Counted from the stretch's first letter, positions 925-32,930 are shown. The stretch is DNA of 64,000 nucleotides from Nemertoderma westbladi (GCA_032718475.1 JAUCBJ010007407.1:1-64000), one strand, 5' to 3'. Notes: generated by a model not told the origin, from the letters alone. Numbers and translations: made by a program.

Positions 925-1102
925 TAGATACTAGGCTCTGTTCCTCGCCAGTAGTCGTTTGTGTATTGTATCTGTTTGTTTAGATATCCTGGACTGGGAT
1001 TTGTTGTCAGATACTGTACAAGCCCGTATACATTACTAGAGTCTCATAGTAAGATACATCATTACTAGGATCTGGTAAGCGGTATACTACTGGACCCTTA
1101 CA
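925..1102 (+). repeat. Remnant (3' end) of the 5' LTR of element A
   Basis: Direct repeat of 18229-18406, ending ...ggacccttaCA. Confidence 0.93.
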
Positions 1103-1112
1103 GTAGGAAGTA
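1103..1112 (+). promoter_or_regulatory. Primer-binding-site position of element A, non-canonical (GTAGGAAGTA, no TGG)
   Basis: Directly follows the LTR-terminal CA. It is the exact reverse complement of LTR sequence tacttcctac (17131-17140). Element B also starts GTAGGAA at this position. Confidence 0.6.
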
Positions 1113-2116
1113 TTTTATATAAATTAGTATATAGTACTTCTATCATAGTGTATAGTATTCCTACCTTACAGTAGGAAGTATATTATACAAATTCTGAGAT
1201 TAGCGTATAGTATAGTTTAGAATTGTTAGCTATTGAAAGTAGGAGATATTTAAAATCTAAGGTTAGTAAATTTAGTAATTTAGAACGTCCCCTGCTTCAG
1301 TAGGCTTTTAGGGTAGCTAGTACTTTCGTATTTAATATTTGACTAGCTAACAGTTAGTTTGTAGCACTTTGTTTTACGCCGTGTGTGTGCGGTGTTACTT
1401 TTCGGTACTTGAAAAGGTACATAGGGTTTAAAGACCAATTTGTATCGGTACCTAGGAAGATTTTTCGTAAGCGTAGAAGTAAAACTCTCACCTTCGACCT
1501 TTTCAGGACTCAAGGACTCATTTCTGGACCGCTTCGAGGATTAGACCGCTTTTCGCAAAGTTTGGGAGACAATAAATTCGTCCGCGCCGCCGAAAAACGG
1601 AAAGACCCACGTCCGGTTTGTATTTGGGAATTTGTACGACTGGAAGATCAAAGGAACGTAAGTTTTACGACTCGCGTCGTTCAAACTTAAGAAAGCACAG
1701 TAGTACTCAAAATTTGTGGGTTTCACTGTCTATTAGTAGTGTTGTTGGTACTTATTTTCCTGTTAGACGTTGCTGTTTGGCCTATTGTTTATACTTGTTG
1801 ATCTATATTTTGTTAACGTATACCGTTATCTCATTTATTCGTACAAATTTAGCCGGTAGGCTAGATTACTACTTATTTTATTATATACCTTGTTAGTTTA
1901 TTTGTACCGGTTAGGGTATATATATGATATATATATATATCAAGGTAAGTTTGACATTTGTACATTTTGACATTTTGACATTTCGACATTCTGACTTGTT
2001 GATTTATTTGTACCGGTTAGGGTATATATGTACTATATATACCAAGGTAAGTTTGACACTTCAACATTCAGACACTTTGACATTTTATTACCCTTAATTG
2101 ACGTATATAATAAGAC

Positions 2117-4495
2117 ATGAGTGACACACCCCATTCGACGAGATACCCACCTACCGACTATGACTCGTGCGACCCGGACAGATCGACAGTAGACGAACCG
2201 AGAAGGAGAACCCGAGATTCCACCGATGTCACACCGCTTGCGTCGCCGGTACCCCGAACGGAAATACCGGAAGCCGCAACGCGTGGCGACGGCAGAATCG
2301 AAGATTTCCTTACCGTCCCGCAGACTAGATCGCGGGAACCGGACATGGTAAGTTCGACTGGAAGCCAGGAGAACGTTATTAGAAGTATAGGAGGACACAT
2401 GGCCCAGATTACTCGGAACCTCGGAGAAGGTTTTCGCGTTTTACGCGAGTTAACCGCCCCGATGTCGAGATACGAGTTCTACACCTTACAGGTAAGGATA
2501 GAAGGTAGGGTACATGCCTCCGTAGATAAACTTAAAGGTTTGCACGAACTTGCAGAGTTGCGTGGCGACAACTTTACTCAGGTAAAGATAGTAGATAAAT
2601 TGGTAAGTGCGAGAGAAAGCCTTATCCAGTTTAAGTCGGTGATAAGATTGGCTCAACAGGAGCAGTTCGACCAACTGCTAGGTGAGTCAGTTTCGGACGC
2701 GTTGTTACAACCCGAAGAGGAAGAAGAACTCTACTGCCTGGACGGAAGGTTGGAAACGCTGACCAATTTTCTTCGTAGATGCGGCGTACCGATCGACGAA
2801 CCGGAAGTCGAACCGCGAGGGACAACGAAAGTTCTCACTACGGAAGGCTCGCGAGCCTACCAACATCCACCACTGGATAGATCGTTCGTTAGCGTACGGA
2901 GCGACGTTGGCAACGTTGGCGACATTAGTAGAACAGCGTCTGGAATTACTCGACAACAACAGGAGGTTGCACGCCGACAACAAGTCGCCGAGGAAGAAGC
3001 GCGACACCAGATGGCACAGATCGCCATCGAAGGAGAGAAACAACATAGAGAGGACGAGGCAAGAATTGCACAACTCAAGGCGCAAGCCGAATTCGAAGCT
3101 TCGGAGATGCGCAGATTGGAGGAGGACTTAGTGCGAGAAGCGGCAGCCGACGAGTTAGCACGACAGGCGGCAGCTGACGTGTTAGCACGACAGGCGGCAG
3201 CTGACGAGTTAGCACGGAAGAAAGCAGCATCCGACGCTCGTGCCAAGTTGGAGGCGCGGCAAATAAACGCTCGATTAGCTATACAGGAAGCTGAGTTAGC
3301 GGCACAACAACAGGATGCAGATCGAAGCGAAAGGGAGATGCAACTACAGTTCGAATTGAATCGTAGATCGCGCGAGACAGCGAACGCGCAAGCGGACCTC
3401 GAACTCGACGCGAGAGATAGATCTATAAGATCGCGAACTGGACACAACTTGTCTGCCCTGGATCGTATGGAAGCTCGATATTGCGGAATACAGAAGCGGA
3501 TCGAGGAAGGAAGCGTGGGAGCGATAGATCGAGGAGAGGAGTTCGTCGAGGATTACTGTAAACGTTTTCCCCAAGTTATTCCTATGCTCAAACCCACGAC
3601 TCCGATAAAACCGGTCTTTGTTACGAAACCTAAGGAAATAACGCCTGTGCGTTCGACGCAAGGCAACAGGTTTGTTGTGACGGAAATACCGCAACCTAGG
3701 GCGACTTCATCGCCAATCTTAGCAGGTAACGTAACTAGTCCACCTACAGTAAGTCGTAGTCTACTTGTAGGAAGAGAGGAACCTGCGTTTATGACCATTA
3801 AACAGGTGAGTAAACCATTACAAGTTAAACCTGTGACGTGCTGTGCAAATCCAGTTATTTACAGACCGACTACGAAACCCGACTATTTCACTCGACCGTT
3901 GACACAATGTTCGACGCAACCTACGACTTCGTGGAAGGCTTGCGAGCCTACCGAACTACGGAGGAGGATGGATGTGGGTAGTACCCACGGGATCGGACAA
4001 CGTATAGCGAGACCTACGACTTCGTGGAAGGCTTGCGAGCCTACCGAACAACGGAGAGCCGTAGATTCCGGACCACAACGGACGAAATCGAGAATAATAC
4101 GCCGGACACGAACCCGCCAACCACCTTATCCGGACGACAGCGACTCATCTAGTGACTCGGAGTCGACGGAACGGGAAATATTCCGTACTGGAGCGGCGGA
4201 AGATTATAAACGAGAGGAACGATCGACGAACCCCTATATCGACAATCCTCCACGAGAAACACCCCAACAGAAACCCACGTTGAAACCAGCGGAAACGATC
4301 AGCGCTAAACAGTTCACCGAGATGACGGACAGAATAGCTCAACTCGAAGAACGACTCGAAGCGCAACCGTCGGATCGATCACGAACCAGCGTGGAGTTGG
4401 AACAACCTAGACAACATCGACCACCGAGGAGAGAACAGGAGACTAGACGGACTCCGACACATCGAGAAGATGATCCCGTTAATAATTCCTACTGA
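2117..4495 (+). CDS. gag: Element A polyprotein part 1: Gag N-terminal extension (Ala/Glu/Gln coiled coil); ends at an in-frame TGA
   Basis: 792-aa ORF homologous to B ORF 42026-43738. In the same frame as 4553-7024 with only the TGA at 4493-4495 between them; B has a sense codon there. Confidence 0.85.
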   Translation: MSDTPHSTRYPPTDYDSCDPDRSTVDEPRRRTRDSTDVTPLASPVPRTEIPEAATRGDGRIEDFLTVPQTRSREPDMVSSTGSQENVIRSIGGHMAQITRNLGEGFRVLRELTAPMSRYEFYTLQVRIEGRVHASVDKLKGLHELAELRGDNFTQVKIVDKLVSARESLIQFKSVIRLAQQEQFDQLLGESVSDALLQPEEEEELYCLDGRLETLTNFLRRCGVPIDEPEVEPRGTTKVLTTEGSRAYQHPPLDRSFVSVRSDVGNVGDISRTASGITRQQQEVARRQQVAEEEARHQMAQIAIEGEKQHREDEARIAQLKAQAEFEASEMRRLEEDLVREAAADELARQAAADVLARQAAADELARKKAASDARAKLEARQINARLAIQEAELAAQQQDADRSEREMQLQFELNRRSRETANAQADLELDARDRSIRSRTGHNLSALDRMEARYCGIQKRIEEGSVGAIDRGEEFVEDYCKRFPQVIPMLKPTTPIKPVFVTKPKEITPVRSTQGNRFVVTEIPQPRATSSPILAGNVTSPPTVSRSLLVGREEPAFMTIKQVSKPLQVKPVTCCANPVIYRPTTKPDYFTRPLTQCSTQPTTSWKACEPTELRRRMDVGSTHGIGQRIARPTTSWKACEPTEQRRAVDSGPQRTKSRIIRRTRTRQPPYPDDSDSSSDSESTEREIFRTGAAEDYKREERSTNPYIDNPPRETPQQKPTLKPAETISAKQFTEMTDRIAQLEERLEAQPSDRSRTSVELEQPRQHRPPRREQETRRTPTHREDDPVNNSY

Positions 4496-4552
4496 CGAAC
4501 AACGCGCGGAAGGGAGCGACTGGACGACGCCGCCGAACAGGGACGCGGACAG

Positions 4553-7024
4553 TTGGACTTAGTTAGCGAGATTGCGAAATTCGCAGCTAGACACGGATTA
4601 CCGGCACAGCAACCGCCGAAGTTCTCTGGCAACGCGAAACACTGGCGCACACTGGTAGACTACGTAGAGTCCCAGATCGCTAAGTGTGCTTTCACCTCAA
4701 CGGAGAAGTTTAATTACTTGCTCCAAGTCCTGTCTGGTGAGCCGAAACGATTAGCGGAAACCTTTATCGGTGTTCCCGATGCCTTTGAGTTGGCGTACGA
4801 CCGTTTGTATTCAATTTACGGCGGTAATGTCGCCATGGCTAAATCCATCATTGAAGACCTCTGCAGAGGAGGCAACATTTCGAGACCGATCGACCTTTTA
4901 CGACTCGCGGACGAAATAAAGAACGCTATAGGGACTTTACGGTCCATTGGACAACTCGAGTACGCTAACGCACCGACGGTTCTCATTCGAATAATCGGTC
5001 GACTTCATCATCGACTACGACGAGAATGGCGACGCATCGAGTACCAGCGTGAAGAGGCCGGAGGGTTATTAAAACTCACCGATGTCTATCAACTTATTTC
5101 ACGGGAGGCCGTGATCGAGACTCGATCGAACTATACCAATCACCATATCGCGGCGGAAGGGATAGCTGTTTCTGCGCCGACTCGGACAAAACCATTTCCG
5201 ACGAACGTGAAAGCCGTTACTTACGCCACCCCTACTGAGACTTCTAAAGTTCTGACGCCTATCGGCACCACGCAGCCACGACAACAGTTGCCGGCGGACT
5301 TTGTGGGATGCTCATACTGCGAGCGGAACGGCAGAAACCATAGCGGACATAAACTACGTGGATGTCGCGCTTTTAAAGAGTTAGGGATCGAGGAGAGGAG
5401 ACTCCAAATCCGATCTCTAGATTCCTGTTGGAGATGTATGAAGCCAGGACACGTCCGGAAGGATTGCCCGAGCGACGATACATGTTCTCTGTGTGGACGT
5501 AACCATGACGCGTTGCTTCACACAACCAGTCATACTCCGACCAGACGCTTTCGACGAGAGCATCCAGATAAAGCGGCTAGATGCGACGCGCTTTATAAGG
5601 AGCGTGCGCCGCGCGAGATCCGTACCTTTTATACCGACTGTATGGATCAGTCAGGATCATCGGACGAGGATGAGGAGGAAGACGACACCTTTTACGTGCA
5701 TGCAGGTGAGGAACAGCCATCGATAACGCTCCTCACACAGAACCAATTGAAAGGGTTTAGCGTGATTCCTATAAAGATTACCGGAACCCGAGGGAGCAAG
5801 CGTATATACGCCATCTTAGACTCTGCGTCATCGCATAGTTATGTCGACGAACAAGTAGCCGACGTAGTTACGGACATGAGTCAAGGTAAGACTGCTCAGT
5901 ATACTGTAAGCAGCATGCATGGTAAGAGAGCGATCCCTGTGACAAGAGTAAAACTAACCTTAGACACTCTTCTTTCCAAAGCGGAACACAGCAAGGAGGA
6001 GCGCTCATTACTTCCGGTAATAAATTTGACCTTTGCAGCTACGAAGGACTTTAGTAACTTGCTCGGCCCTGTGCCAGAGCAATCACCGGAAGATCGTAAG
6101 TATTTCCGACACCTTGGAATACCGGAATGTCCTGTCAATTATCGTTCCATTGCGATGTTAATTGGGACAGACCAGTTTAACTTACATCAGGTATGGGAGA
6201 CACGCCCATCTGTTATTACAGCGGGCAACCCCTACGCATGTAGAACTCCCATAGGTTGGTATACTAGAGCACCAATACGTTCACTAGAGGTAAGTGACCA
6301 GGAGGACGACGTTTTGAGTACGTGTAGTTTATTGACTAACACGATAGATAATTCTCCTTCACACTCCTGTGGTCCAATTGTACGGACGGCACTACGACAG
6401 ACTTGCGTCACTAACGCAGACGCCACCGATACTGACGTAACCGATCTGGACACGACCATACGGACCTCTGACTTACAACTACTTGCAGTAGACCAGGTTG
6501 TATTGACTACTGAAGACCTAAGGGTTGTTGCCGTGGATGACTCGATGAACGAGGATTTTGGAAGGCTTGCGAGCCTACCGAAAAATCCGAAGGTCATTGA
6601 CCCCACCCACCAGGCTTCGACACCGGTCGTTGATTTTGGAAGGCTTGCGAGCCTACCGATAGATCAAAAGGTTGTCAAACCGCCGCACGACAATTCGACG
6701 CCGACTAGTGACACCGGAAGGCTTGCGAGCCTACCAGACACATTGACACTAGCCACCGCAGCGGACGAAGACGTGGATGAGGACCATGGCGCAGTGCAAG
6801 CAGCGCTTGACCGACTGCTGACTGAACGGACCATACAATGGTTGGAACAGGACTCAGCAGAACCCGGTAGTTACGAGACCGCTATGTCAGAACAGGAAAA
6901 ATGGTCATTAAATATTATGAGAGATACCATTCGCCAGACCGCGAATGGCCACTATGAGGTTGGTATGTTGTGGCGCAATGGACAGGACAACCTAAGTTCG
7001 TTAACAATTACCCGCTTGCTTTGA
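4553..7024 (+). CDS. gag-pro: Element A polyprotein part 2: BEL Gag core (DUF1759-like), Cys/His knuckles, aspartic protease
   Basis: PPKFSGN..HW...KFNYLLQVLSGEP core; CWRCMKPGHVRKDC and CSLCGRNH knuckles; protease ILDSASSHSY. Frameshifted to part 3 by a 5-bp duplication ggaca|ggaca at 6980-6989. Confidence 0.9.
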   Translation: MDLVSEIAKFAARHGLPAQQPPKFSGNAKHWRTLVDYVESQIAKCAFTSTEKFNYLLQVLSGEPKRLAETFIGVPDAFELAYDRLYSIYGGNVAMAKSIIEDLCRGGNISRPIDLLRLADEIKNAIGTLRSIGQLEYANAPTVLIRIIGRLHHRLRREWRRIEYQREEAGGLLKLTDVYQLISREAVIETRSNYTNHHIAAEGIAVSAPTRTKPFPTNVKAVTYATPTETSKVLTPIGTTQPRQQLPADFVGCSYCERNGRNHSGHKLRGCRAFKELGIEERRLQIRSLDSCWRCMKPGHVRKDCPSDDTCSLCGRNHDALLHTTSHTPTRRFRREHPDKAARCDALYKERAPREIRTFYTDCMDQSGSSDEDEEEDDTFYVHAGEEQPSITLLTQNQLKGFSVIPIKITGTRGSKRIYAILDSASSHSYVDEQVADVVTDMSQGKTAQYTVSSMHGKRAIPVTRVKLTLDTLLSKAEHSKEERSLLPVINLTFAATKDFSNLLGPVPEQSPEDRKYFRHLGIPECPVNYRSIAMLIGTDQFNLHQVWETRPSVITAGNPYACRTPIGWYTRAPIRSLEVSDQEDDVLSTCSLLTNTIDNSPSHSCGPIVRTALRQTCVTNADATDTDVTDLDTTIRTSDLQLLAVDQVVLTTEDLRVVAVDDSMNEDFGRLASLPKNPKVIDPTHQASTPVVDFGRLASLPIDQKVVKPPHDNSTPTSDTGRLASLPDTLTLATAADEDVDEDHGAVQAALDRLLTERTIQWLEQDSAEPGSYETAMSEQEKWSLNIMRDTIRQTANGHYEVGMLWRNGQDNLSSLTITRLL

Positions 7025-10000
7025 GGCGACTCAAATCAATAAGGCAGCGATTGTTGCGAGACGAGATGGCCCATATGCAATACAATGCACAACTTCAGAC
7101 GTATCTCCAAAAGGGATACGCCATTAGGATGTTAAATCCCGAGGTAACCTCAGACCAGACATATTACCTGCCACATCATTTTGTTCGACACCCGGACAAA
7201 CCTGGCAAGGTGCGTGTAGTCAACGACTGCGCTGCGCTTTACCAAGGGATGTCTATGAATAGCGAACTGATGGACGGGCCGAATATGAATAATTACCTCA
7301 TGGGAGTCCTAATGCGTTTTAGACAACGCAAAGTGGCTTTCACCTGTGACGTAGAGGCCATGTTTCACCAGGTTAAGGCTTTGGAGCGGGACAGGGACAG
7401 TTTGAGGTTTCTTTGGTATCCGGACGGAAACTTACAACTTCCGCCAGAAACTTACCAAATGCAGGTAAGAGTATTCGGAGCCAGGGACAGCCCCAACTGC
7501 ACCATGTACGCCTTAAAGCAGACAGCATTGGACAGACGAGACCAATTTGACCCAGAAGTAGTTCGGACCGTGGAACGAGACTTCTACGTGGATGACGGCC
7601 TCAAGAGTTGTGACACCTTGGAGCGCGCTACAACCGTAGCACACCAACTCCAGGATTGTCTCGCTGAGGGCGGATTTCACCTGACGAAGTTCGCTTCCAA
7701 CGAACCCGAACTGGTGAACTCATTTGACCCGATGGATCGCAGTGGAGGTGACTTGGACTTAGACTTAGAACCTCTGCCGACGACCAAAGTATTAGGACTT
7801 AGTTGGGACCCTAACACCGACAATTTTAGGGTACGTGTAAGGTCCAACGATCGGACTAGACCTCTCACTAAGAGAACTTGCTTATCGACCATGAGTCGAT
7901 TGTATGACCCATTGTGTTTCATTAGTCCAGTGATCCTACATGCCAGGATCATACTCCGCAGCATTTGGCAAGCCGGACTGGAATGGGACGATCCCATCCC
8001 AGAAAAGTTAGCTGAGCGATGGAGGGACTGGGAAGCCCAACTGACGTTCCTACAAGACTATACCATACCAAGGGTATACTTTCCTTTGCAAACCACCTTT
8101 CCTGCTGATTTAGAGCTTCACAGCTTTAGTGACGCTAGCAAGGATGGATTGGGGGTTACTTTATACCTTAGACGACAAGTGACATCGGACAGCTACGATG
8201 TATCTCTCGTTACTTCAAGGGCTAGAACAATGCCATTGAAGTATATGACTGTACCTCGTGGGGAGCTGCAAGCCGGGACGATATCCACCGATATTGTCAG
8301 TCTAGTTCAACGCGAGCTGGAGGCTAACTTGAAGGTCACATATTGGACGGATGCGACGTTGGTACTTTGGTACATAAACAACGAAACATTCGAGTTCAAG
8401 ACTTTCGTAGCCAACAGACGGGCTGAAATATTAGACCGGTCGCTCAAACAAGATTGGCGTCACTGTCCAGGGAAGCTGAACCCAGCTGACATCGCGTCAC
8501 GGGGGATGCAACCACTTGACTTTTGTAAACCGGACAATAAATCCTTTTGGTTTAGAGGACCCGATTTCCTACAGCGACCATCAGACGAATGGCCACCGTT
8601 ATTCGACGCGACAACCAACACCATACCAGAGGGTGCCGAGATAAAACTCGACAAGGTTGTCAAGTCTAAAGCGAAAGCCAACGCCAAGGTCAAGAGGAAA
8701 AAAGGACGGACGAAATCTGATGACCTGGATGCCAGACCTGACATTACGCCAGACGTCTCGCCAGACACTCGACCAGACGCTTGTACAAATCCTTCGCCGG
8801 ATGTTCCGCGGGAGATTTCACCAGACGTTTCGCCGGATTGTTCACCAGATTACTCGCCAGACTATTCACCAGAAGAGACACCAGATTGTTCTCCGGATTG
8901 TTCGCCAGATTGTTTGATGGAACTCTCGACAGAATGTCTACCGGACGTCTCACCAGACTGTTCACCAGACATCTCGACAGACTGTCCACCAGACTGTCCA
9001 CCAGACTTTAGACCAGACTTTCTGACAGAAGTTACGCTAGACAGACTTTGGGACCGACGACAGGACATTTCGCCGGATGTTCCGCGCTATGTCTCACCAG
9101 ACGTCTCACCAGACTGTTCACCAGACGCTTCACCAGACTGTCTACTAGACACTCCATTAGAAGACCCATTGGAGCGGACTTTTAGAGACGTACCGAATTT
9201 GACTTCTTTGGACGACAGAGGTGTGGCCACAGGGATTACACTCCGCTCGAAGAAGGTACTTGACTTACCTACAGGTAAACGTGTGACTAAGGTTAGGAAG
9301 CTTACAGGCTCACAGGAACACACTGACACTGTAGAGTTGAAACCATTACTGCCAGTCGACACATTAGGTGCGGACGGTAAAGGTAAGACCGTAGAGATTG
9401 ACGTACTTGGGGATTCAGACAAACCTACGGGAAGGCCCGTGGGCCTACCAAGTCCAGACAAGTATCCACACTACGACTACACCTTACCTGATGACGTCAC
9501 CAACACTTACGTTGACAGGATAGTGAACCTAACTAGATCATGGACTGACGCGTGCCGCAAGTTAGCATGGCTCAAACGATTGAGACAATATGCCAGAGGC
9601 AAACGCGACTTTCCTAGAAGACTTACCTTAAAGGAAATTGGCCACTGTGAAGTTGATATCATTCGACATTATCAATTGCGATATTTCGCACGAGAGTTCA
9701 CAGCGATCAAACAAGGTAAACAGATTAAGTCTTCACCGATTTTGAGTTGGAGTCCGATTATTTACCGGGGCTTACTTTGTCACAAGTCCAGACTACAAAA
9801 CATCGACTTTGCACTTGACTTTAGGTATCCTATCATCATACCGCAACACCATGAGTTACAGCGCGCTATGATACTGGACGCACATGTACAACTCAAACAC
9901 GTAGGTAGACACCACTGTCTATCACACTTACGCTCGAGGTTTGTACTGATTAGACCTAGTAAGGCACTGAGTTCGGTAACACGGAACTGTATTATTTGTA

Positions 10001-11016
10001 AGAAGGTGCACGCGAGGATAGGACACCAAGAAATGAGTGAACTACCACTAGCTAGATTACAGGCGTTTAGACCCCCTTTCACTGAGACAGGGATAGACTG
10101 TTTTGGACCCATAATCGCGAAACGCGGAAGGGTACAGGTAAAACGTTGGGGATTGATCTTCACTTGCATGGCCAGCAGAGCTGTCCATATAGAGCGAGTG
10201 ACAGACTTGACCACCAATGCCTTTATCCTAGCCTTACTGCGATTTATCGCTAGACGTGGATTGGTCAAATCCATATACTGCGACCAAGGGACAAACTTTG
10301 TGGGTTCACGGAACGAGATAACCAGAGCTTTGAGAAAATTGGACCAAAACCAGATTTCCGAGGAACTACGTCCTCACCGTATTGTTTGGGTTTTCAATAC
10401 TCCAGACAGTCCGTGGAGAGGCGGCGTTTGGGAAAGGCTGATTGGCTCAATAAAGACAGCTATGGCTAAAGTCGTACCGACGCAACACACCTTGACAGAC
10501 GACCAACTAACGACGTTACTAATAGAAATCGAAGCAATCTTAAATACCAGACCGATCGCTTTGATCCCAGACAATAACGACGTACAGTTTGCCTTGACAC
10601 CAGCGCACCTGCTTATGCAGGCGCCGACGACATTGTTGCCCATTTCGGTACCCGTTGATAGTGACGGATACGGCAACAAAGCTTGGAAAATCACTCAATT
10701 ACTTGCAAATAAATTCTGGGAAATATGGCAGAAATATTATTTGCCCTCTATTTCGACCAGAACTTCCTGGTATCTAAATACCCGATGTTTAAGACGTGGT
10801 GACCATGTTTTATTGGCTGAAGCTAATCTGAAAAGACGGTTTTGGCTGACTGGAGTCATTTTGACCACGCACCCTACATCTGGTGTAGTGAGGACAGTTA
10901 CTGTACGGACTATCGACGGACGTACCGTAGACAGACCTGTACAACGTCTCGTACTCCTTGAGGAAACTAGAAACGAGACGGGAGACTACAAATCTCCACC
11001 CAATATTAGTAAATAG
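6970..11016 (+). CDS. pol: Element A polyprotein part 3: reverse transcriptase, RNase H (Peptidase_A17-type region), integrase
   Basis: YYLPHH..KVRVVND, DVEAMFHQ, FYVDDGL (RT); HSFSDAS, YWTDA, NPADIASRG (RNase H); HHCC zinc finger, GIDCFGP, CDQGTNF, GGVWERL (DDE integrase); BEL C-terminal domain RPVQRLVLL. Confidence 0.95.
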   Translation: MAQWTGQPKFVNNYPLALRRLKSIRQRLLRDEMAHMQYNAQLQTYLQKGYAIRMLNPEVTSDQTYYLPHHFVRHPDKPGKVRVVNDCAALYQGMSMNSELMDGPNMNNYLMGVLMRFRQRKVAFTCDVEAMFHQVKALERDRDSLRFLWYPDGNLQLPPETYQMQVRVFGARDSPNCTMYALKQTALDRRDQFDPEVVRTVERDFYVDDGLKSCDTLERATTVAHQLQDCLAEGGFHLTKFASNEPELVNSFDPMDRSGGDLDLDLEPLPTTKVLGLSWDPNTDNFRVRVRSNDRTRPLTKRTCLSTMSRLYDPLCFISPVILHARIILRSIWQAGLEWDDPIPEKLAERWRDWEAQLTFLQDYTIPRVYFPLQTTFPADLELHSFSDASKDGLGVTLYLRRQVTSDSYDVSLVTSRARTMPLKYMTVPRGELQAGTISTDIVSLVQRELEANLKVTYWTDATLVLWYINNETFEFKTFVANRRAEILDRSLKQDWRHCPGKLNPADIASRGMQPLDFCKPDNKSFWFRGPDFLQRPSDEWPPLFDATTNTIPEGAEIKLDKVVKSKAKANAKVKRKKGRTKSDDLDARPDITPDVSPDTRPDACTNPSPDVPREISPDVSPDCSPDYSPDYSPEETPDCSPDCSPDCLMELSTECLPDVSPDCSPDISTDCPPDCPPDFRPDFLTEVTLDRLWDRRQDISPDVPRYVSPDVSPDCSPDASPDCLLDTPLEDPLERTFRDVPNLTSLDDRGVATGITLRSKKVLDLPTGKRVTKVRKLTGSQEHTDTVELKPLLPVDTLGADGKGKTVEIDVLGDSDKPTGRPVGLPSPDKYPHYDYTLPDDVTNTYVDRIVNLTRSWTDACRKLAWLKRLRQYARGKRDFPRRLTLKEIGHCEVDIIRHYQLRYFAREFTAIKQGKQIKSSPILSWSPIIYRGLLCHKSRLQNIDFALDFRYPIIIPQHHELQRAMILDAHVQLKHVGRHHCLSHLRSRFVLIRPSKALSSVTRNCIICKKVHARIGHQEMSELPLARLQAFRPPFTETGIDCFGPIIAKRGRVQVKRWGLIFTCMASRAVHIERVTDLTTNAFILALLRFIARRGLVKSIYCDQGTNFVGSRNEITRALRKLDQNQISEELRPHRIVWVFNTPDSPWRGGVWERLIGSIKTAMAKVVPTQHTLTDDQLTTLLIEIEAILNTRPIALIPDNNDVQFALTPAHLLMQAPTTLLPISVPVDSDGYGNKAWKITQLLANKFWEIWQKYYLPSISTRTSWYLNTRCLRRGDHVLLAEANLKRRFWLTGVILTTHPTSGVVRTVTVRTIDGRTVDRPVQRLVLLEETRNETGDYKSPPNISK
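8730..9150 (+). repeat. Coding 12-bp minisatellite (ccagac-based; S-P-D-C/V repeats) between RNase H and integrase
   Basis: Repeated tcaccagac/tcgccagat units giving SPDVSPDCSPDYSPD...; B has an analogous PDGQPDML array at 37430-37690. Confidence 0.85.
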
Positions 11017-11511
11017 ATGTGGGACCTTTGTTGGCCGCCACATAGACCTACTGTATTTTAGTTATTTGTATTTGTAGTACTGTACGTGCATTTGTAATCC
11101 TCTTCACTGTAGATAGAGACAGCGGTGGAATTCCATTGTCTTTATACGTGAACATGGAGGGTAGTACCCTTATGTATCACATAGGAGCGGGATTGTGTGT
11201 ACAGTAGGAATGGAATTCCACTTGGAACCCACAAGTGAGACAATTTTCAAAAATTATTAGACAAATCCATTTAGTTGGATTTTAATTTAAGAAAAACGAT
11301 TCTCCAGTGAAAAGCAAATTCTAGAATACAGCTAGAAAAAATTAAAATTGGGGAGGACAAGAGCGGATGGAAGGCTTGCGAGCCTACCGATAAATTTTTT
11401 TTGGAAAAAGAAAATCGGTCTTGTTCTACGTAGTCGTGTCTACTATTATTTAGACCAATTAATTCTCGACTGCATTATTTTCTTGGGAAACGTAGTTTGG
11501 GAAATTAAAAG

Positions 11512-11708
11512 GTGAGTATTTTAGACTCGCGGCTAGTTTACCCGGAATTCGTTTTTTATCGGCACATTTTGGATTAGGAGCCAGTGCGAAATCACGCGAA
11601 CCCGAAGTCATTAGGCAAAATGGGTTGGGGTTTAGAGCAGAGTTGAGCCAAAAGCCGACAAACTCTAAAGTCACCTCACATCTAACCTCTATTTTGTGCT
11701 TCATCTAG
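11512..11708 (+). other. Putative intron in the leader of the accessory gene
   Basis: Donor AG|GTGAGT at 11512, branch CTAAC at 11682, pyrimidine tract and CTAG ending 11708, 40 nt before the ATG at 11749. All three signals are conserved in B (35031 to 34827, minus strand). Confidence 0.55.
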
Positions 11709-11748
11709 TAGAAACGTAACGATATGTAACCGCATATATTCGTATACG

Positions 11749-12663
11749 ATGGCGGAGAAGATGTATAAAGAGTTACGTCAAGGGTTTACGCAAGAACAGG
11801 AGCACCAGGCGCCATTCAATCGTTATGGAGCTAAAAACTTTAGTGTGTTTGGAGTGGAGAGTATGGCTAGGAGTACGGCCAAGCTCGCTAAATCAAAGGC
11901 GGACCCGAATGTTACGCGACAGCGGTTGGACGCATACAATAAAAGAACGGAGGAATTACGCGCGGAATACAATGCGTTATATCCCTACGACGCGTTATGC
12001 GACGCTAGCGACATTTGCGAGGATCCAGACACCGAAATACGCCAATTGTATCATACGCTGCAATATTTAACGGTAAACGAACCTTTACCTGCAGCTAGAG
12101 ACGAATTTGAAGGAATGCATCTTTATAGACGCGCTCGAGGAGCGGATCCAGAGACCAAGGACGCGTTTTCCGTATACAAACTGTTTTATAAATGTGGAGC
12201 GTGTATGCGCGAGCAAGACAACGCGATTCCTATGCGGTTGAACTCGGAGAACCCCGAGCCGATATTAGCGCGATGTTCACACCACCAAAGTCTACGTTAC
12301 CAAGAAGGCGGATACCCTTTGACAAATCCGTATCATTCATTTAAGATGAGTGGACCGAACGCGGGTGAGATCGTTATTTACGAACCAAAATTAGTCGAAC
12401 CAGACGTCTACAGCATGGTAGTGGACGAGTCTAATAAGTCGACACAAGAGAAATGGGAAGCTTTGAGCCTCTACAGGGCGTACAAGGCGTACGAGAAAGG
12501 CGAGATCGAGGAGTTCGGCGGAAGGCTCGCGAGCCTACCATTCTATTGGATATCCCACGATCAAACCGAACCCAAGGAGATGACACCCGAGCTCTTCGAT
12601 AGTATCACCTTTGCTCAGCGTTTGTCGCAGAGACTACAGATACCTCATGTCGAGATGACGTGA
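11749..12663 (+). CDS. Element A accessory gene, N-terminal part (unknown function)
   Basis: 304-aa ATG ORF whose N-terminus is homologous to B 34600-34795 (APFNRYGAKNFSVFG vs APFERFGAKDYTIFG). The frame stays open after the TGA at 12661-12663 into 12829-15504. Confidence 0.8.
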   Translation: MAEKMYKELRQGFTQEQEHQAPFNRYGAKNFSVFGVESMARSTAKLAKSKADPNVTRQRLDAYNKRTEELRAEYNALYPYDALCDASDICEDPDTEIRQLYHTLQYLTVNEPLPAARDEFEGMHLYRRARGADPETKDAFSVYKLFYKCGACMREQDNAIPMRLNSENPEPILARCSHHQSLRYQEGGYPLTNPYHSFKMSGPNAGEIVIYEPKLVEPDVYSMVVDESNKSTQEKWEALSLYRAYKAYEKGEIEEFGGRLASLPFYWISHDQTEPKEMTPELFDSITFAQRLSQRLQIPHVEMT

Positions 12664-12828
12664 GAACCTCAGCCCCATTCTACTGGAGCGATAGTACCGG
12701 TTGCGAGACCAACTAGTTTTCCTATTAGTATACCGACCCGGAAGGAGACAACTTACGAGATCCCTATAGTTGAACACCCGGAGATCATCTCGAACCTGGA
12801 TTTCCTCCCATCGGTCACCTTCGGTGAT

Positions 12829-15504
12829 GTGTTAGAATCAACCGAGTTGCGTAAAGTAATAGTTCAAAAAATCGTACGCAACGTGCCTCCACATATCACG
12901 GACTTTAAGGAAGTGGATCGCGCGGGGACGGATATCGCACCTTGTATCTTGAGAGGATATCTGACGAAAATGATTCGATTATGGATCGGAGTTGGGACGT
13001 TTGAGACCGACACCGATATCGCGACCAATTGGACTGGTAAACCTATTAGTTTCGATGACGAAAAGTCGATCGGGAGAATTTGGAACCCTACCGACGATTT
13101 ACTCGACGATTGGGACGTGACTAGCCGATCTCTGAAAGAGAATGGATATATGTTCTACGATAATGAAGGAGGAAGCCATCAGCAAAGCCTCACTTCAAAG
13201 ACTATACAGATTAGAGCACCAGATGGCGTGTTACATGTCTTCAGCCGACAGAGGAGTGATAGGAAGATGCCTATGCCGGAAGGAACGACGCAAAGACACG
13301 CGATGATAAAACGGATAGTTAAATCCATGGACCTGGCTTGTAGCATAGAAGCTAGGATGTTGCCAAAGGCCGTGCGAGACGTTGTGTTGGATAAGAGCAT
13401 CGTCAAGATCGGATCCGGTGTACGGGATGACCTCATTAGCGACTTTGCAGGGATGCCCACGGAAGAGGACCGATTGCCTACGCCATACGTGGATACTAGA
13501 CCATTGTTGCTTTGGGCTATTGAGCAAGGATACTTTAGAGAGTATAACACGCTAAAAACTGGGACGGGTTATATCTCATATCTGATGTTCAGTTGGGATT
13601 ACAAGGAGAGTAAGAGGAACAAATACACGGACGTATACGGAGAGGGAGATACCCCCGGCGTAAACGAGTTCGAGTCACAGTTAAAGTGGCGAGGTTGCGT
13701 GTATTGGGCGATTACTTCACCTCCGCGGATAATCTTGCAATACTATTTAGCGATAGAATCTTCGGTTAACGTTTGTTTCATCGCGGACGTAGTATCCAGA
13801 ACCTTAAAGCGACACCCGTTATGTCTTGGCGAAGGACATACCTTTTACGAAGGAGGAAGGATGCATACTGATGTATTCCGACGATTTCTCCAACCCTTTT
13901 ATAACACTGATGCGCACTGCGAAGTTTTCACGCGAGCGGGACTTAGCGTTTTCAGGGACGTCTATCTCACTCACGCGGGAAGTCTAGTCGACAGACCGTC
14001 GATGTTAACGTTAGTACCCTATGACGGGGAACGCCACGCGGAATTCGAACGCCCGGAAGGATCCTGGAAGGCTCGCGAGCCTACCGCCCATCATGACGAT
14101 GTGGATCCGACCGAGTTGGCGCAAATAGACGAACCGTTACGGCAACTTATAGAAATAGAGGAGAACCTTCCGAGGAAGACGCGAACTGAGATACGCGAGT
14201 TAGAGAAAAGCGATGCCATGGTTTGTGTACAACCTACGGAGACGAACATACCGACTGACCCGGATGATGAGAATTATCACGTGGATGGTAGCGCTCACCC
14301 CATCGGAGATCTCATCTATGAGCGAGTTTGGTATCCTGCCAACACTATTTGTGGCAGATGTGGAGCAACTGGCCATCACGCAAAGAAGTGCGGAGCGAAG
14401 CACATATCTCTACCGGATTTAGTATGCAACTGGTGCAGGGATCAACGTTCGCACACTTTCTACACTTGCTGGCGTTTCGTGGCGCAGTGTACTTATTGTA
14501 ATATTAAGGGCCATAGGGCATCTGAATGTCAACTTAGAGACGTCCCCTATGAGCACATGTCAGTTAAAATCGTTCGACAATTATTCGACCATTGGGAGGA
14601 TCTAGCAGACGAGCATGTATCGACGCACCGACGCCGCTTCCTTATGAGAGCACATTTGGGATTTTGGGCCGTAAACCCTCTCATAATGTCAAAGGAAGGA
14701 TATGTATCGGCTATGCCTCAGTACGATGAATTGTTGGAGGTATTGGATATATTGCCGTTGGACAGTGGATTCAAAGTTGTGCGGGACTATTTCTTACAAG
14801 TGCACCCCGACAACAAGAATACTTGGAACTTTCAAACTGTGGTGAACAAGATTACCGCCGGAGAATTCGATAAACTGCGAGTTGAACAGCGGAATCGAGG
14901 AGCCTGGCATTCGATAGCTTGGGCATACCGGAGCGCATTTTATCACAAACGCGTAACCTCGTGCATTCTGGACGAGACCGACGTTTTGCGTGAGACTGGC
15001 TTCAAGGCCACGCCGTTAGCGGAGAAGACGCGTCACCCACAGGATGATCAGCAATTTCGTATACTCAAAGCCCAGAAGGCCGGACAAGAGATTAAGAAGA
15101 TAGTGAATGTCGCCGAGAGGACGACATCAAAGTCGCAAATCCGGATGACTCGGGGCACGGTTTCCCTTGCTAGAGAACCACGCGGAGGGACAGGATACGC
15201 TTTGACTGAACCCATTAGGATTCAAACGACGTCAGAGAGCGAGGTGTCAACGGACGGAACAGTCCTACCTTTTCGACTTCCTCCTAGCGTTGTAGAAACT
15301 CGATCCGATGTTAAGCCGACAGTTGGAATCGGACGAGGATTTAGAGGATTAAGCGCACGACGGATGTGCGAAACTCCCGTCGTCCCCTTTCCTAGCGTTT
15401 TGGAACCACCGACGACTCGACGCCGAAGTCCGAGCCAAGTTCGACCTCGACCACCCCCCAATCGCACTAGAGGACGTGGACGAGCCCGCTCAGCGAAGGA
15501 ATAG
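12829..15504 (+). CDS. Element A accessory gene, main part: DEDDy-type 3'-5' exonuclease-like domain, three zinc knuckles, Arg-rich tail
   Basis: MFYDNEG (ExoI), TIQIRAPDGVLHVF, LPKAVRDVVLDKSIVKIGSGVRDD (ExoII), YVDTRPLL, QYYLAIES (ExoIII-like); knuckles CGRCGATGHHAKKC, CNWCRDQRSHTFYTC, CTYCNIKGHRASEC; tail RGRGRARSAK. Domain call by motif recognition only. Confidence 0.75.
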   Translation: MLESTELRKVIVQKIVRNVPPHITDFKEVDRAGTDIAPCILRGYLTKMIRLWIGVGTFETDTDIATNWTGKPISFDDEKSIGRIWNPTDDLLDDWDVTSRSLKENGYMFYDNEGGSHQQSLTSKTIQIRAPDGVLHVFSRQRSDRKMPMPEGTTQRHAMIKRIVKSMDLACSIEARMLPKAVRDVVLDKSIVKIGSGVRDDLISDFAGMPTEEDRLPTPYVDTRPLLLWAIEQGYFREYNTLKTGTGYISYLMFSWDYKESKRNKYTDVYGEGDTPGVNEFESQLKWRGCVYWAITSPPRIILQYYLAIESSVNVCFIADVVSRTLKRHPLCLGEGHTFYEGGRMHTDVFRRFLQPFYNTDAHCEVFTRAGLSVFRDVYLTHAGSLVDRPSMLTLVPYDGERHAEFERPEGSWKAREPTAHHDDVDPTELAQIDEPLRQLIEIEENLPRKTRTEIRELEKSDAMVCVQPTETNIPTDPDDENYHVDGSAHPIGDLIYERVWYPANTICGRCGATGHHAKKCGAKHISLPDLVCNWCRDQRSHTFYTCWRFVAQCTYCNIKGHRASECQLRDVPYEHMSVKIVRQLFDHWEDLADEHVSTHRRRFLMRAHLGFWAVNPLIMSKEGYVSAMPQYDELLEVLDILPLDSGFKVVRDYFLQVHPDNKNTWNFQTVVNKITAGEFDKLRVEQRNRGAWHSIAWAYRSAFYHKRVTSCILDETDVLRETGFKATPLAEKTRHPQDDQQFRILKAQKAGQEIKKIVNVAERTTSKSQIRMTRGTVSLAREPRGGTGYALTEPIRIQTTSESEVSTDGTVLPFRLPPSVVETRSDVKPTVGIGRGFRGLSARRMCETPVVPFPSVLEPPTTRRRSPSQVRPRPPPNRTRGRGRARSAKE

Positions 15505-16142
15505 AAAGCGAGTGGAAGGAAGGCTTGCGAGCCTACCGATTTGAATATTATATTTGGATATTATATTTGGATATTATATTTGGATATTATATTTGGATAT
15601 TTATATTGGACATTATGTTTGAATGTTGGGTTTGGAGGAGCGAGATATGGAAAGGAAGGCTTGCGAGCCTACCGTTAGCAATTGGTGCTCAGGAGAAGAT
15701 ATCCAGACCAGCAGGACGAACTTTTCAGATCGTCAGGAGGACTCTTTAAGACTTATTTGAAAGTTATTAGCGCATTGTGTTTATATTATATTTGGACTGA
15801 TTTAATTTGGTGAAGGTTTATTATGTATATTTACAATATATAAAGATTTATCGAAAGAGTTTGATTTATTTGTTCGATTTGTTTTGATTTATTTGTTCTG
15901 ATTTGTTTAATTTGCTTACCTTGATAACCGAAAGCCTTTTTTTGTATTTTAGGCACTAAAGTTAATTCGTAAATTTGTATTTGTATGTACGATCGATTGT
16001 ATTTACGCCGTATCTGCAATATTAAGTATGCAATAATTAGATAGTGATTATATTTTATATTTTAGGCCCTACCAGTAAATTTAGAAATAGTTTGTAAATA
16101 TTTTTTATTTCGATTGGTGAAAACAGTCTTACTTACTGTTTT

Positions 16143-16152
16143 CATGGAGCGG
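16143..16152 (+). promoter_or_regulatory. Polypurine-tract position (catggagcgg) before the 3' LTR of A
   Basis: The same GGAGCGG directly precedes the 3' LTR in B (32312-32318, minus), C (25513-25519) and D (60708-60714, minus). Confidence 0.75.
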
Positions 16153-16294
16153 TGATGAATTATTTCACTATAAGGTAGCATTTGTAGTTTAACTTTAACG
16201 TAAAAACTTTCGAAAATCCGACGTATTTTGATTAAGTTACAGTAATGTAATATGCCTATTCATATTTGTACACATAAAACCCTTAGGTACTCTC

Positions 16295-16377
16295 GTGGCG
16301 TAGTGGTCAGATGGTTAAGGCGTTGGTTACATTACATAGGTTACGAGTTCGAATCCCAGTCGGGAAATTTGTATTTT
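16295..16377 (+). ncRNA. tRNA-derived Pol III cassette (A box, B box, T-run) inside LTR A
   Basis: gtggcgtagtggtcagatggttaaggcg...gagttcgaatcc followed by tttt. Stems pair poorly, so this is not a functional tRNA. Confidence 0.6.
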
Positions 16378-16440
16378 GGGACCATTTATTTTCGTTTGGT
16401 GCTAATTGGTAGGCCAATGAGAAGCGTACAACGTAGCGAA

Positions 16441-16656
16441 TAATGAGCCAGGCCAATCATAGGGCATAAATTATCTTATTGCTCAAATGTGAGGCAGTGG
16501 AAAATTCTGTTAGGATTCCATGTCCCAGATTAGTGTAAGGGCCGGACTGCGTTGAACGATGAGCTGGGCCAATCATAGGGCACGAAGCACTTTATTGCTC
16601 AATTGTGAAGCTGTGGAAAATTCTGTTTAGTTTCCATGTGCGATTTTAGTATAAAA
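16441..16656 (+). promoter_or_regulatory. LTR A promoter: duplicated ~117-bp CCAAT-box units and TATA box (16650-16656)
   Basis: Two copies of ggccaatcatagggca...tggaaaattctgtt, then TATAAAAGG. B has TATAAAAGG at the equivalent place (31880-31888, minus). Confidence 0.65.
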
Positions 16657-18406
16657 GGCCGGTTTGCCTTCGGTTATTATCTCTCTTACCACACCCTTAT
16701 AACCCTTATGTTAGTTTATTCGGTTTCTTGTTGAAACTTCGTTTGATAATTCTTTGTAAAACTGTAAATATACTGCAATTCCTGAACATGTTTTCCTTTG
16801 GTCCAACTTTGGGACAGCCAAACATCAGGGAGATGGCAGCCTAGACCGTTAGGCCGTAAGCAACGCAGGGAAGGGGTGTCCACAACACGCTAGCGCCCAC
16901 ATTGGATCGACCGCGCACCCCCTTTGCCCCTTCGAAATGCTCCACTTGCTATGCAGCGCCCGCTTTGTGAGAAGGTAAGACTTTGTTCGACGCCCTTGCC
17001 CGCCGTAAGACCTATAGATCAGGGTAAGCGTGACACCGTACTGGACGCCGCAAATTTAGGATCAAATAATTATATCCAGACAACCCCCCCCCCCCCTTTG
17101 TCAAGTCCTACGAATCCCTGGGTTAACCTGTACTTCCTACAGGTGCGAACTATTGCCATTCGTCAGTACGCGAGTACATATTAGGTACGGACAGCATATG
17201 TTCCATAATTTAGTGATTCATAGCACTGACTGTTTGGTACCGGTTCGCTTTGTAGAACGTACATTAGTACCCCCCCCCCCCCCCCCCCTGTCTGGAGTTA
17301 GCTATTTGATCAGGCAAGGAGCATTTCTGCTACCGGCACACTGCTTGGCCTAGGGAGGTTTATTAATATCCTACCGCGCCTTGCCACGTACTGATAGGTA
17401 TTGCTGCTAACTACCGCAGCAACAAAGTTCTAGAATTAAATTAGTATACCAGATCAGCTAACGTACGGTAGCGATTAACCCCTATTCTTATCTTACAACC
17501 AGAATCTGGTATTAGTGCCGATCACGGGTGTAGTTACTAACACTGTGGTTGCCCATTGGGTTGTGGATAGGAAGGAGAGAGCTTTGACGTCATTCGTGAG
17601 TATAAAGTTCTACAAAACGCGACTAGTTTATTTTAGTAGCTAGCGCACGGTATCATTTTAGTCAGAAAATCACTAAAACCTAGTAAAAGGAATTACACGA
17701 AATTGTTTTATTTGTAACACACCCACACACACACGCCCTAAAACATATTGCCCTTAAAGTTCTACTAGCTATAGCGCACTATACATTACTTTAGGTGGAA
17801 ATTGTCTGTATTTGTAAAATTAGGATCTGATTTAGTTGCGGCAAGATAGAGTATTTCACTTTCGTTATTAAACTGTTGATTTCTGTCCAGCAGTTATTGT
17901 TACATTTAGGCTTGACCCTTTAGACTGATTTCGTACAGGGGGATCAGTTATCGTTACATTTAGGCACGACCCCTTTTCGACTGATTTAGGACAGTCAGTG
18001 TTGTTACGCTAGGTCTGTTAACCCACTAGCTCGTATATAAACCATATAAATCACACCGCGGCAAGTTACTGTATTTAGGACTGTCAGTGATAGTTAGGAT
18101 TCGCTGCGCGGGGATTGTTTTCCCGTGAGTTTGGTCTGTTACTGTAACTGTACATCTGCCTCACCGGTTAGAGGACAGGTATCCTTCTGTCTAGTACGTA
18201 GGCATTAGACCCGCTCACGTACATAGAATAGATACTAGGCTCTGTTCCTCGCCAGTAGTCGTTTGTGTATTGTATCTGTTTGTTTAGATATCCTGGACTG
18301 GGATTTGTTGTCAGATACTGTACAAGCCCGTATACATTACTAGAGTCTCATAGTAAGATACATCGTTACTAGGATCTGGTAAGTGGTATACTACTGGACC
18401 CTTACA

Positions 18407-21400: not shown

Positions 21401-22452
21401 GAGTAAGCTTCTATGAACCACCCTTTACTAATACCGGTGTAGATTTATTTGGCCCTATTGAAGTATATCGTGCTAGGACTATAGTCAAGAGATGGTGTGT
21501 CATCTTTGTTTGTATGACTTGTAGATCATCCATCTTGTCTATCCATCTCGATATGGTGAACGATTTATCTACCAACAGTTTCCTATTAAGCTTACGACGA
21601 CAGATCGCTCGCTTTGGAACCAGTAACACGATGAGATCTGATAAGGGAACAAACTTCATTGGTGCCAACAATGAAATCAAAGCTTACGTCAAAGATTGGA
21701 ACCAAAGACAGGTGGACGATAAGCTACGAGTAACAGCGTCTAGCTGGACCTTCAACGCCGCCGACGCCCCTTGGTGGGGAGGAAGTTGGGAGAGATTAAT
21801 AAGAAGTGTGAAGACCGCATTTCACTTTATAGTGCCGTGCCGCGCGTATCTCACCGACGAACTTTTGTGGACGTTAATGGAGGAAATCGCCTCCTATCTC
21901 AACGAGAGACCGCTTATGCCAGTCTCATCGAGTCCCGATTCCCTGGAAGCGCTAACACCCGCGCACTTCCTACTGAAGAAACCTGTAGCCATGCTCCCAC
22001 AATCGGAAATCACAGACGGAGACGAATACTGCCGGCAAACTTGGCAACTCATGCAGTTGTTATCCCGTCGTTTTGCTGACCATTTCGAAAAACATTATCT
22101 GCCCACGCTACAACTTCGAACTAAGTGGTTTGCGCAGCAAGAAAACGTCAGCGCTGGAGACATGGTCCTTATTGTGGATGCAGATCTTCCACGTAAGCGG
22201 TGGCAGACAGGTCGTATCATCGAGACTCACATCTCGGATGACGGTTTGGTGCGATCGGTAGAACTTGTCGTCATGCGACGTAACTTCAAGAAACCGGGAA
22301 TTGTCTTCGAGACACAGCAGCTCAATCGCCCAGTTGGTCGCTTATGTTTACTGGAAAGAGACAGAGAACTCTCCGGAAACTATGGAAGACAAGATACTCT
22401 TCCCACGACCACCTCCCTAATCCAACAAACATCTAGGGACTCCCCAGCTTAG
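18407..22452 (+). pseudogene. pol: Element C pol (RT-RNase H-IN); in-frame TAG at 18871-18873; main ORF 19006-22452
   Basis: YYLTHH, DIEGMF, IYMDDNL, HVFGDAS, NPADIASRG, GVDLFGP, SDKGTNF, GGSWERL. ORFs 18445-18873 and 19006-22452 share a frame. Confidence 0.92.
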
Positions 22453-25441: not shown

Positions 25442-25519
25442 CTGTTTAGAGTATTTTTATATTTTAGAAACTGTGATTTTTTATATTTTATAGACTAAAA
25501 TCCCATTTTCTGGGAGCGG

Positions 25520-28961: not shown

Positions 28962-29028
28962 TCACCCGAGATCGGCCGACAACAAAGGTAGGGCCGTTAG
29001 CTGACAGTGTCTGACAGAGTGGTAGGGA

Positions 29029-32311: not shown

Positions 32312-32823
32312 CCGCTCCATGAAAACAGGATATTATCGTGCATAAAATATACGGTTTTCACCAATACTAAATCAAATTATGGAATACTTGGGACGTACTT
32401 ACATATTTACAAATTAAATTATCAACAATAATACCTCTACATAATAATTCGATACAAAAATAATTACAAATTCAAATTTACGTATTTAAGGCTTTATTAA
32501 GTAAGTACAATATAAATCTAAATTAAATTCACCAAAATAAATCTATTGCATCTCAAATATTGCATAAATTCAAAGAATCACAAATACTAATACTACTTAA
32601 ATATAAAACAAATTGCATAAGTGCGGAATAAATCACAAGAAAGGCTCACAAGTCTTCCGTCTGCTCTTGCCTTCTATTTACTGCGAATACAAATACTGCT
32701 TCTTTATAAAATATAAATTGCATAATATTCGAAACAATAAATTGCGTAAGTTTGGAATGACTACAAATATAGCACTTTCTAAATATAAATCTTTCTAAAT
32801 GCAAATCTTTACTAAATATAGAT

Positions 32824-32930
32824 ATAAACTGCATAAGTTTAGAACAATATAAACTGCATAAGTTTAGAACAATATAAACTGCATAAGTTTAGAACAATAT
32901 AAACTGCATAAGTTTAGAACAATATAAACT
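32824..32930. repeat. 25-bp tandem repeat (ataaactgcataagtttagaacaat) x~4 in the 3' UTR of B
   Basis: Direct inspection; degenerate copies at 33045-33100. Confidence 0.85.

Follow-up and report, generated by a model that had tools for sequence, protein, structure and literature searches.

Elements A and B, two long terminal repeat (LTR) retrotransposons that lie among nested retroelements in a 64,000-nt window of an animal genome (Nemertoderma westbladi, GCA_032718475.1 JAUCBJ010007407.1:1-64000), very probably prime reverse transcription not with a transfer RNA (tRNA), but with RNA from their own LTRs. Both A (925-18406, plus strand) and B (46882-30424, minus strand) are BEL/Pao retrotransposons, by their proteins and by tree. 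This type of mechanism is already known from Tf1; what appears new is its likely occurrence in BEL/Pao elements, and the form it would take in most of their families, where the primer appears to be built by splicing. [quoted passage not shown] As for the 3' end of the primer, we lean toward a cut by RNase H in a transcript folded back upon itself, rather than trimming by the nuclease-like product of the third open reading frame (ORF3) of these elements. The support comes from complementarity, register, co-variation and distribution in relatives, and from these we infer the steps of the mechanism.

The LTRs of both elements are very long—2.25 kb in A and 1.89 kb in B—as a preliminary description of this DNA had stated. 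No TGG-type start of a primer-binding site (PBS) occurs within 1103-1300 of A, and the first TGG in the leader of B lies 145 nt in. The bases that follow the LTR match, instead, a complementary site (the anti-PBS) within the LTR itself:

925 to 1102, plus strand: remnant of the A 5' LTR (its surviving 3' end), 178 nt, 98.9% identical to 18229-18406
16153 to 18406, plus strand: complete A 3' LTR, 2254 nt, with TG..CA ends
1103 to 1113, plus strand: A non-tRNA PBS, adjoining the LTR end, its complement within A's own LTR
17130 to 17140, plus strand: A anti-PBS, where the primer is predicted to end at 17140; it occupies the loop and 3' arm of a hairpin of 7 bp (17126-17144)
45000 to 46882, minus strand: B 5' LTR, with TA..TA ends, 99.05% identical to the B 3' LTR
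30424 to 32311, minus strand: B 3' LTR
44989 to 44999, minus strand: B PBS, adjoining the LTR end
46026 to 46036, minus strand: B anti-PBS, with its 3' LTR copy at 31460-31450

In A, 17131-17140 pairs with 1103-1112 through 10 Watson-Crick pairs, plus one G-U pair; in B, 46036-46026 pairs with 44999-44989 through 11 Watson-Crick pairs. When 60 registers were compared at each LTR end, the longest perfect duplex started in both elements at the first base past the LTR, as previously described, and dinucleotide shuffles reproduced the match in 12 of 3000 trials for A and 4 of 3000 for B. At four positions (8-11) A and B differ in PBS and anti-PBS alike, with pairing kept.

The same feature recurs among relatives. 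Alignment of reverse transcriptase (RT) and RNase H sequences brought together 106 loci, 79 from metagenome contigs and 27 from genome records, and the PBS was scored in the 22 with both LTR ends fixed; the other 84, including the decayed repeats L083 and L102, were excluded. Two of the 22 (L100 and L103) are of the tRNA type, with a TGG-type PBS 6-7 nt past the LTR and neither a spliced nor a contiguous complement. The other 20 have no TGG-type site, and a script found a complement to the PBS in the LTR of 19 of them, in most cases after predicted splicing; this supports the earlier proposal of tRNA-independent priming by LTR-derived RNA. In L088, the complement was seen by eye only, with one mismatch.

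Partial complements in the 20 non-tRNA relatives often start directly after an acceptor-like AG, and the missing letters precede an upstream donor. Once a predicted GT-AG intron of 76-697 nt is removed, the joined letters give 15 of the 22 relatives 11-15 paired bases, with pairing that begins 0-5 nt past the LTR; a contiguous complement of 10-11 nt, as in A and B, is present in four of the 22. As controls for the spliced form, 360 downstream windows and 540 cross-family pairs gave no score of 11 or more. Where the donor-side letters differ, between L082 and L084, the corresponding PBS letters differ, too. Because such a complement exists only after splicing, its partner would be RNA, and an LTR-derived primer is the plain reading. 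In a FastTree tree of 115 RT-RNase H sequences, A, B and element C (described below) form a long branch nested among splice-primer families, so the contiguous, intron-less state of A and B is likely derived. A spliced primer was sought for A and B as well and rejected; the best candidate reaches only 7 nt. Several of the relatives have LTRs that are 99-100% alike, a figure that collapsed assembly may inflate. Those numbered L080-L106 are 27 BEL/Pao loci in records of bacterial or archaeal metagenome-assembled genomes, and are most likely misbinned animal host DNA.

Were the primer tRNA-free, the failure of tRNA-based PBS searches on these elements would be accounted for. A splice-built primer, if true, ties retrotransposition to host splicing, and makes a precise prediction of which RNA the first cDNA carries at its 5' end.

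How the 3' end of the primer might arise depends on the layout of the LTR. The RNA polymerase III (Pol III) cassette, the TATA box at 16650 and the second TATA-like block near 18040 that had been described earlier are all confirmed, and all are present in both A and B:

16296 to 16356, plus strand: A Pol III A box (16296) and B box (16345), tRNA-like, followed by a T-run
46743 to 46688, minus strand: B Pol III boxes (A box 46743, B box 46699), kept in the LTRs of A and B alike
16650 to 16655, plus strand: A upstream TATA box, conserved in B (46464), with an initiator-like block about 25 nt on
17590 to 17603, plus strand: 14-nt block of the A LTR, identical in B, containing a splice-donor consensus (GT at 17596)
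18040 to 18170, plus strand: A LTR block with a second TATA-like box at its start; the B counterpart is the TATA block at 45274

By the mechanism that we favor, a transcript from the upstream TATA box would carry the anti-PBS about 460 nt from its start, and would fold back onto the PBS. A cut immediately 3' of the anti-PBS would release a 3'-OH at the LTR boundary, and RT would copy the LTR from the PBS back to the cut, a distance of 1.0-1.27 kb in A and B. In most relatives, the primer would be assembled by removing an LTR intron through splicing; strong-stop DNA would then stop short of that intron, on its downstream side, and the 3' LTR would serve as the template from which the intron is copied again. 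Since a cut in cis would place the end of strong-stop DNA there, it would explain why most families keep the LTR intron. For this reason, and because no extra gene is needed, cleavage by RNase H seems to us the somewhat probable route. From the downstream TATA block (18043), a shorter mRNA that lacks the primer is likely made for translation. Between the upstream TATA box and the anti-PBS, both LTRs also have a three-codon upstream ORF, Met-Ala-x-stop (16835-16843, plus strand, in A; near 46280, minus strand, in B).

A number of observations weigh against self-priming of this kind. The predicted location of the anti-PBS is hundreds of bases into the transcript and not at the predicted cap, unlike that of Tf1; the nearest TATA box is 491 nt (A) or 439 nt (B) upstream of the predicted primer end. 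A crude test for the second duplex of Tf1, in which the sequence after the primer is compared with the LTR end, was passed by two of 22 elements, both of one family (P = 0.45 for A, 0.14 for B), and a strong-stop DNA of 1.0-1.27 kb is long. The anti-PBS of A is about 30 nt off the position that aligns with B's, where A has a second, shorter match, and it doubles, by score, as the pyrimidine tract of a splice acceptor. The spliced cases numbered 10 under strict filters, and 15 once the filters were relaxed; the LTR limits of L089 and L098 were adjusted manually; among the 20 relatives some are close kin of one another (L004/L013/L045, L082/L084, L023/L098) and some are possibly collapsed assemblies; and the root of the tree was assumed, being placed on the tRNA-type loci.

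Long LTRs, moreover, yield chance 10-mers. Ten pairs were found in 2 of 15 downstream leader windows for A and 3 of 15 for B, with six registers and one wobble allowed, and contiguous matches of at least 10 in 14 of 540 cross-family pairs. The signal rests, therefore, on exact register, on its presence in both elements, and on the relatives. The leaders of A and B also fold into local hairpins that cover the PBS, and it could be that the match reflects chance or structural pairing, and that something else, a tRNA fragment or a local leader hairpin, does the priming. This is very unlikely, given the exact register in both elements, their co-variation, and the recurrence of the feature in 19 of the 20 non-tRNA relatives.

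If the primer is LTR RNA, host enzymes might make its 3' end instead, throughout the clade, by trimming a short LTR transcript that has been spliced and polyadenylated. In 10 of 19 relatives a poly(A) hexamer lies 0-31 nt past the predicted end of the primer, and in 16 of 19 it lies no more than 132 nt past it; the route requires no nuclease encoded by the element, and the Tf1-type second duplex is not consistently present. By itself, however, host trimming leaves the retention of an LTR intron in most families unexplained, and the tail to be removed in A and B would be 250-300 nt plus poly(A), whereas the RNase H route has experimental precedent. We consider host trimming unlikely.

The preliminary description had assigned the trimming to the element itself, to a 3'-5' exonuclease-like protein that would cut an annealed LTR transcript back to the duplex. 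The relevant features are these:

11749 to 15504, plus strand: A ORF3, about 1250 codons, with an in-frame stop at 12661-12663 in the window copy
13108 to 13863, plus strand: A exonuclease-like domain, likely DEDDy/WRN-type 3'-5', by motif order and embedding search
14350 to 14535, plus strand: three CCHC-like zinc knuckles in A ORF3, by sequence and a weak zf-CCHC match (E 0.012)
33194 to 34796, minus strand: B ORF3 remnant, from which about 2.1 kb, including the exonuclease region, is gone near 34630

Aligned with the exonucleases of RNase D and Pol I, the domain has its motifs in the same order: D-x-E, the SIVKIGSGVRDD motif and, later, Y-x3-E. Exo I and Exo II line up with those of eight bacterial domains of the RNase D/Pol I kind; Exo III reads ambiguously, probably with E in place of D. 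An Atlas embedding search placed WRN-like DNA_pol_A_exo1 clusters first (0.92), and the ten best family-bearing matches belong to one family or clan; the recognition value, 2253, is slightly below the guide of 2300. Pfam, PDB, two word searches and a full profile search of the exonuclease region were all blank, a small hidden Markov model of the domain scored no higher than shuffles, and a single-sequence structure model had a predicted local distance difference test (pLDDT) value of 35. The lone match in a homologue search was rejected, being a repeat protein that aligns over 40 residues. A DEDDy-type 3'-5' exonuclease at 13108-13863 is likely, by its motifs; the element-encoded exonuclease of the preliminary description is plausible, then, but not proven.

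The stop at 12661-12663 is absent from nearly all contig depth in four runs, in which the exonuclease domain is covered throughout, and other B-family copies extend into the region deleted from the window copy of B (loose end at 34633). The lineage probably carries ORF3 whole, therefore, notwithstanding nuclease-deleted copies such as B itself and those with a joint from 12311 to 15374, present in three of four runs. Splice-donor consensus sites just before gag (1940-1950 and 2042-2052) and an acceptor before ORF3 (11695-11712), all on the plus strand and conserved in B, suggest that ORF3 has a spliced mRNA of the env type.

The relatives speak against any general need for this protein. ORF3 has no match among the 106 loci, and no room in any of the 20 non-tRNA relatives, where the end of pol is 83-477 nt from the 3' LTR (17 gaps were measured by script, and the other three judged from coordinates). 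An element-encoded exonuclease in cis, then, is not generally needed for priming of this kind, though one may be supplied in trans; the expected co-occurrence of exonuclease and anti-PBS fails in one direction, and as a general rule trimming finds no support. No exonuclease-bearing BEL/Pao family was found other than the A/B lineage.

For that lineage alone, trimming could still apply. A short transcript from the upstream TATA box would anneal to the PBS of genomic RNA made from the downstream one, and the ORF3 exonuclease would trim its 3' tail. Only in A and B are a nuclease-like ORF and an anti-PBS more than 1 kb from the LTR end found together; the distance is 1.0-1.27 kb there, versus 44-240 nt in 19 relatives. 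No other segment of the LTR is as well conserved as the downstream TATA block (73% over 147 nt to B, E 2e-12), from which an R-U5 of ordinary size, 240-330 nt, would result; poly(A)-like hexamers follow the anti-PBS by 294 nt (A) and 249 nt (B); ORF3 has zinc knuckles; and its probable integrity in the lineage, already described, fits, too. Against this stand the 20 relatives that manage without ORF3 in cis, the nuclease-deleted copies, and the unproven identity of an exonuclease whose last acidic residue is probably E. A single lineage, besides, cannot establish co-occurrence, and DEDDy-type ORF3s are described, in the portion of PMC5408684 consulted, in unrelated rotifer LTR and Penelope-like elements without a demonstrated role in priming. 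We think trimming by ORF3 rather unlikely. The A/B lineage, since only there does a nuclease-like ORF accompany a distant anti-PBS, is nonetheless a natural test of cutting versus trimming, and it is present in many copies within one organism.

The third part of the system proposed earlier was a genome tagged with hairpins. The motif itself is real:

2843 to 15671, plus strand: A hairpin motif of about 20 nt, in 12 sense copies (at 2843, 3934, 4027, 6561, 6639, 6717, 9431, 11370, 12521, 14067, 15519 and 15655), none in the LTR

There are 12 copies in A and nine in B, all in the sense orientation, in three frames and in non-coding DNA; 11 of those in A have no more than one mismatch, compared with 0.0 in shuffles. 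The motif is missing from the LTRs of A and B, from the sister elements C and E (below), and from the 106 relatives, and scans of viral contigs for its pattern, and for the proteins, found nothing. Most copies in B fold weakly, and so the sequence may matter more than the hairpin. Nothing ties the hairpin tag to priming.

The Pol III boxes are real, too, with no tie to priming. A Pol III RNA was rejected as primer: its end, which would fall about 770 nt upstream of the anti-PBS, has no complementarity to the PBS. ARAGORN makes no call at the cassette; its tRNA-Cys, at 15802-15892, was treated as spurious, in AT-rich DNA. Rfam has nothing near threshold in 15500-48000, so the LTR blocks are unexplained by any known ribozyme or tRNA family. 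A strict A-plus-B-box pattern occurs in none of the 106 loci, but misses A's own cassette as well, and this is a weak blank; a DNA pattern scan of metagenomes for the conserved LTR block returned nothing.

Unless we misjudge them, three features are accessories peculiar to this lineage: ORF3, the Pol III boxes and the hairpin motif. As guesses at their roles, ORF3 might act in RNA processing or counter-silencing, the Pol III boxes might form a TFIIIC boundary or yield a small RNA, and the hairpin motif might offer repeated sites for protein binding or packaging. A more elaborate scheme can be drawn, in which a large BEL/Pao clade does without tRNA and usually splices its primer, while in A and B the LTR has been split into a primer gene and a genome promoter, their own exonuclease trims the primer, and the hairpin marks genome RNA for packaging; as a whole we hold this to be improbable. 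The tRNA-free primer is well supported; the three-part system of primer RNA, exonuclease and hairpin tag is not shown.

BARE1 is a tRNA-primed plant element of the Copia superfamily. It resembles A and B in its long LTR with two TATA boxes and, according to the part of PMC3735527 consulted, keeps separate RNA pools for replication and translation; the parallel in A and B is drawn from sequence only. Closer in mechanism are the Ty3/gypsy elements Tf1, Tf2 and Tj1, here as portrayed in extracts of the papers cited. In Tf1, the transcript's initial 11 bases pair with the PBS, and RNase H cleaves after base 11 (PMC7175516); Tj1 is a self-priming element of the Tf1/sushi group (PMC4600332); and Tf2 has alternative starts with and without the primer (PMC5341516). 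These share with A and B a PBS, just after the 5' LTR, to which about 11 nt of LTR RNA are complementary, and an RT with RNase H; they dispense with tRNA, as A and B very probably do. A and B differ from them in having Pao-type proteins, not a Ty3/gypsy RT, thus belonging to another superfamily, and in lacking a general second duplex.

For Belpaoviridae (Semotivirus), the ICTV profile lists a PBS of 18 nt that matches tRNA-Arg or -Gly, LTR lengths of 0.2-1.2 kb and a total length of 4.2-10 kb, with replication primed by host tRNA and poorly understood (PMC8742986). A and B resemble this family in having gag followed by protease, RT, RNase H and integrase, Pao-specific Pfam families, an optional third ORF, LTRs and a purine tract; they differ in having no tRNA-type PBS, LTRs of 1.9-2.25 kb, lengths of 16.5 kb (B) and about 19.6 kb (A, given a whole 5' LTR), and an ORF3 that is not env-like. 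As described in the portion of PMC5408684 noted above, Juno/Vesta and the Terminons of bdelloid rotifers have, as A likely does, an ORF3 with a DEDDy-type exonuclease and an altered acidic motif (DEED in the rotifer elements); for Juno and Vesta, only an auxiliary role is suggested. Juno and Vesta are separate rotifer lineages, and A's ORF3 is much longer and carries CCHC knuckles.

Self-priming in BEL/Pao elements was not met in an open-access literature search at the level of listings. The excerpt of PMC3601003 mentions self-priming for chromoviruses only, and a term look-up for primer or tRNA found no mention in the portions searched of PMC554778, PMC3118150 and PMC9094657.

The remaining anatomy of A and B is that of Pao-type elements:

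2117 to 11016, plus strand: A gag-pol, with DUF1759, zinc knuckle, RT (YVDD), RNase H and integrase
16143 to 16152, plus strand: A purine-rich plus-strand primer tract; the identical 10-mer precedes the B 3' LTR (32321)
35507 to 44170, minus strand: B gag-pol, its gag interrupted by two in-frame stops; 75% identity to A over RT-RNase H
1156 to 1180, plus strand: second copy, in A, of the LTR-end-plus-PBS motif, within a predicted leader hairpin

A leader of about 1 kb separates the 5' LTR remnant of A from gag-pol, which is disrupted twice, at 4493-4495 by a stop and near 6960-7020 by a change of frame. Pfam matches in A and B comprise DUF1759, Peptidase_A17 (5e-40), Integrase_H2C2 and DUF5641, in the Pao-type order of RT, RNase H and integrase, and most of the top database matches are metazoan Pao-type polyproteins, 41-47% identical. 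The YVDD motif of RT and the DAS motif of RNase H are found in both elements. B has the LTRs and 5-bp target duplication characteristic of BEL/Pao; the 5' LTR of A is truncated. Both window copies are broken, by stops, frame change or deletion, but both families are deeply covered, with many variants, in contigs from three DNA studies, depth not being the same as copy number. A further run, presumed to be RNA, yielded contigs of low depth and was set aside. Contigs in three of four runs bridge all of B, from 30421 to 46918, and point to an empty site or a related target repeat.

Both elements have an in-frame array of 12-nt repeats, Ser-Pro-Asp-rich, between RNase H and integrase (8745-9160, plus strand, in A; 37432-37680, minus strand, in B). 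The LTRs of B end in TA..TA rather than TG..CA, and those of certain relatives (L106, L026 and L009) likewise end in TA or AA. The LTR-end-plus-PBS-like motif is repeated about 40 nt inside the LTR end of B (45046-45031, minus strand) and about 65 nt into the leader of A (1166-1180, plus strand), which suggests that the LTR boundary has shifted through duplication.

Elements C (18407-26685, plus strand) and E (63979-59490, minus strand) are two copies of a sister BEL/Pao family, with an RT 44% identical to that of A and a support of 0.994 for the sister relationship in the RT-RNase H tree. They have the GGAGCGG end of the purine tract and the knuckle-bearing part of ORF3 (25% to A, E 2e-7); an exonuclease match was not found in them, and the window contains no 5' LTR of either. 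Adjoining the LTR of C is a separate, unrelated Pao-type gag fragment (26700-29000, minus strand; DUF1759, 1e-15), and an ORF for a non-LTR-type reverse transcriptase lies at 47587-49605 on the minus strand (RVT_1, 2e-28; DUF6451). Upstream of the truncation point of A, at 528-662, a 22-nt tandem repeat sits in a larger imperfect inverted repeat, and at 54000-55900 two opposed arrays of a 15/17-nt satellite form a large inverted repeat.

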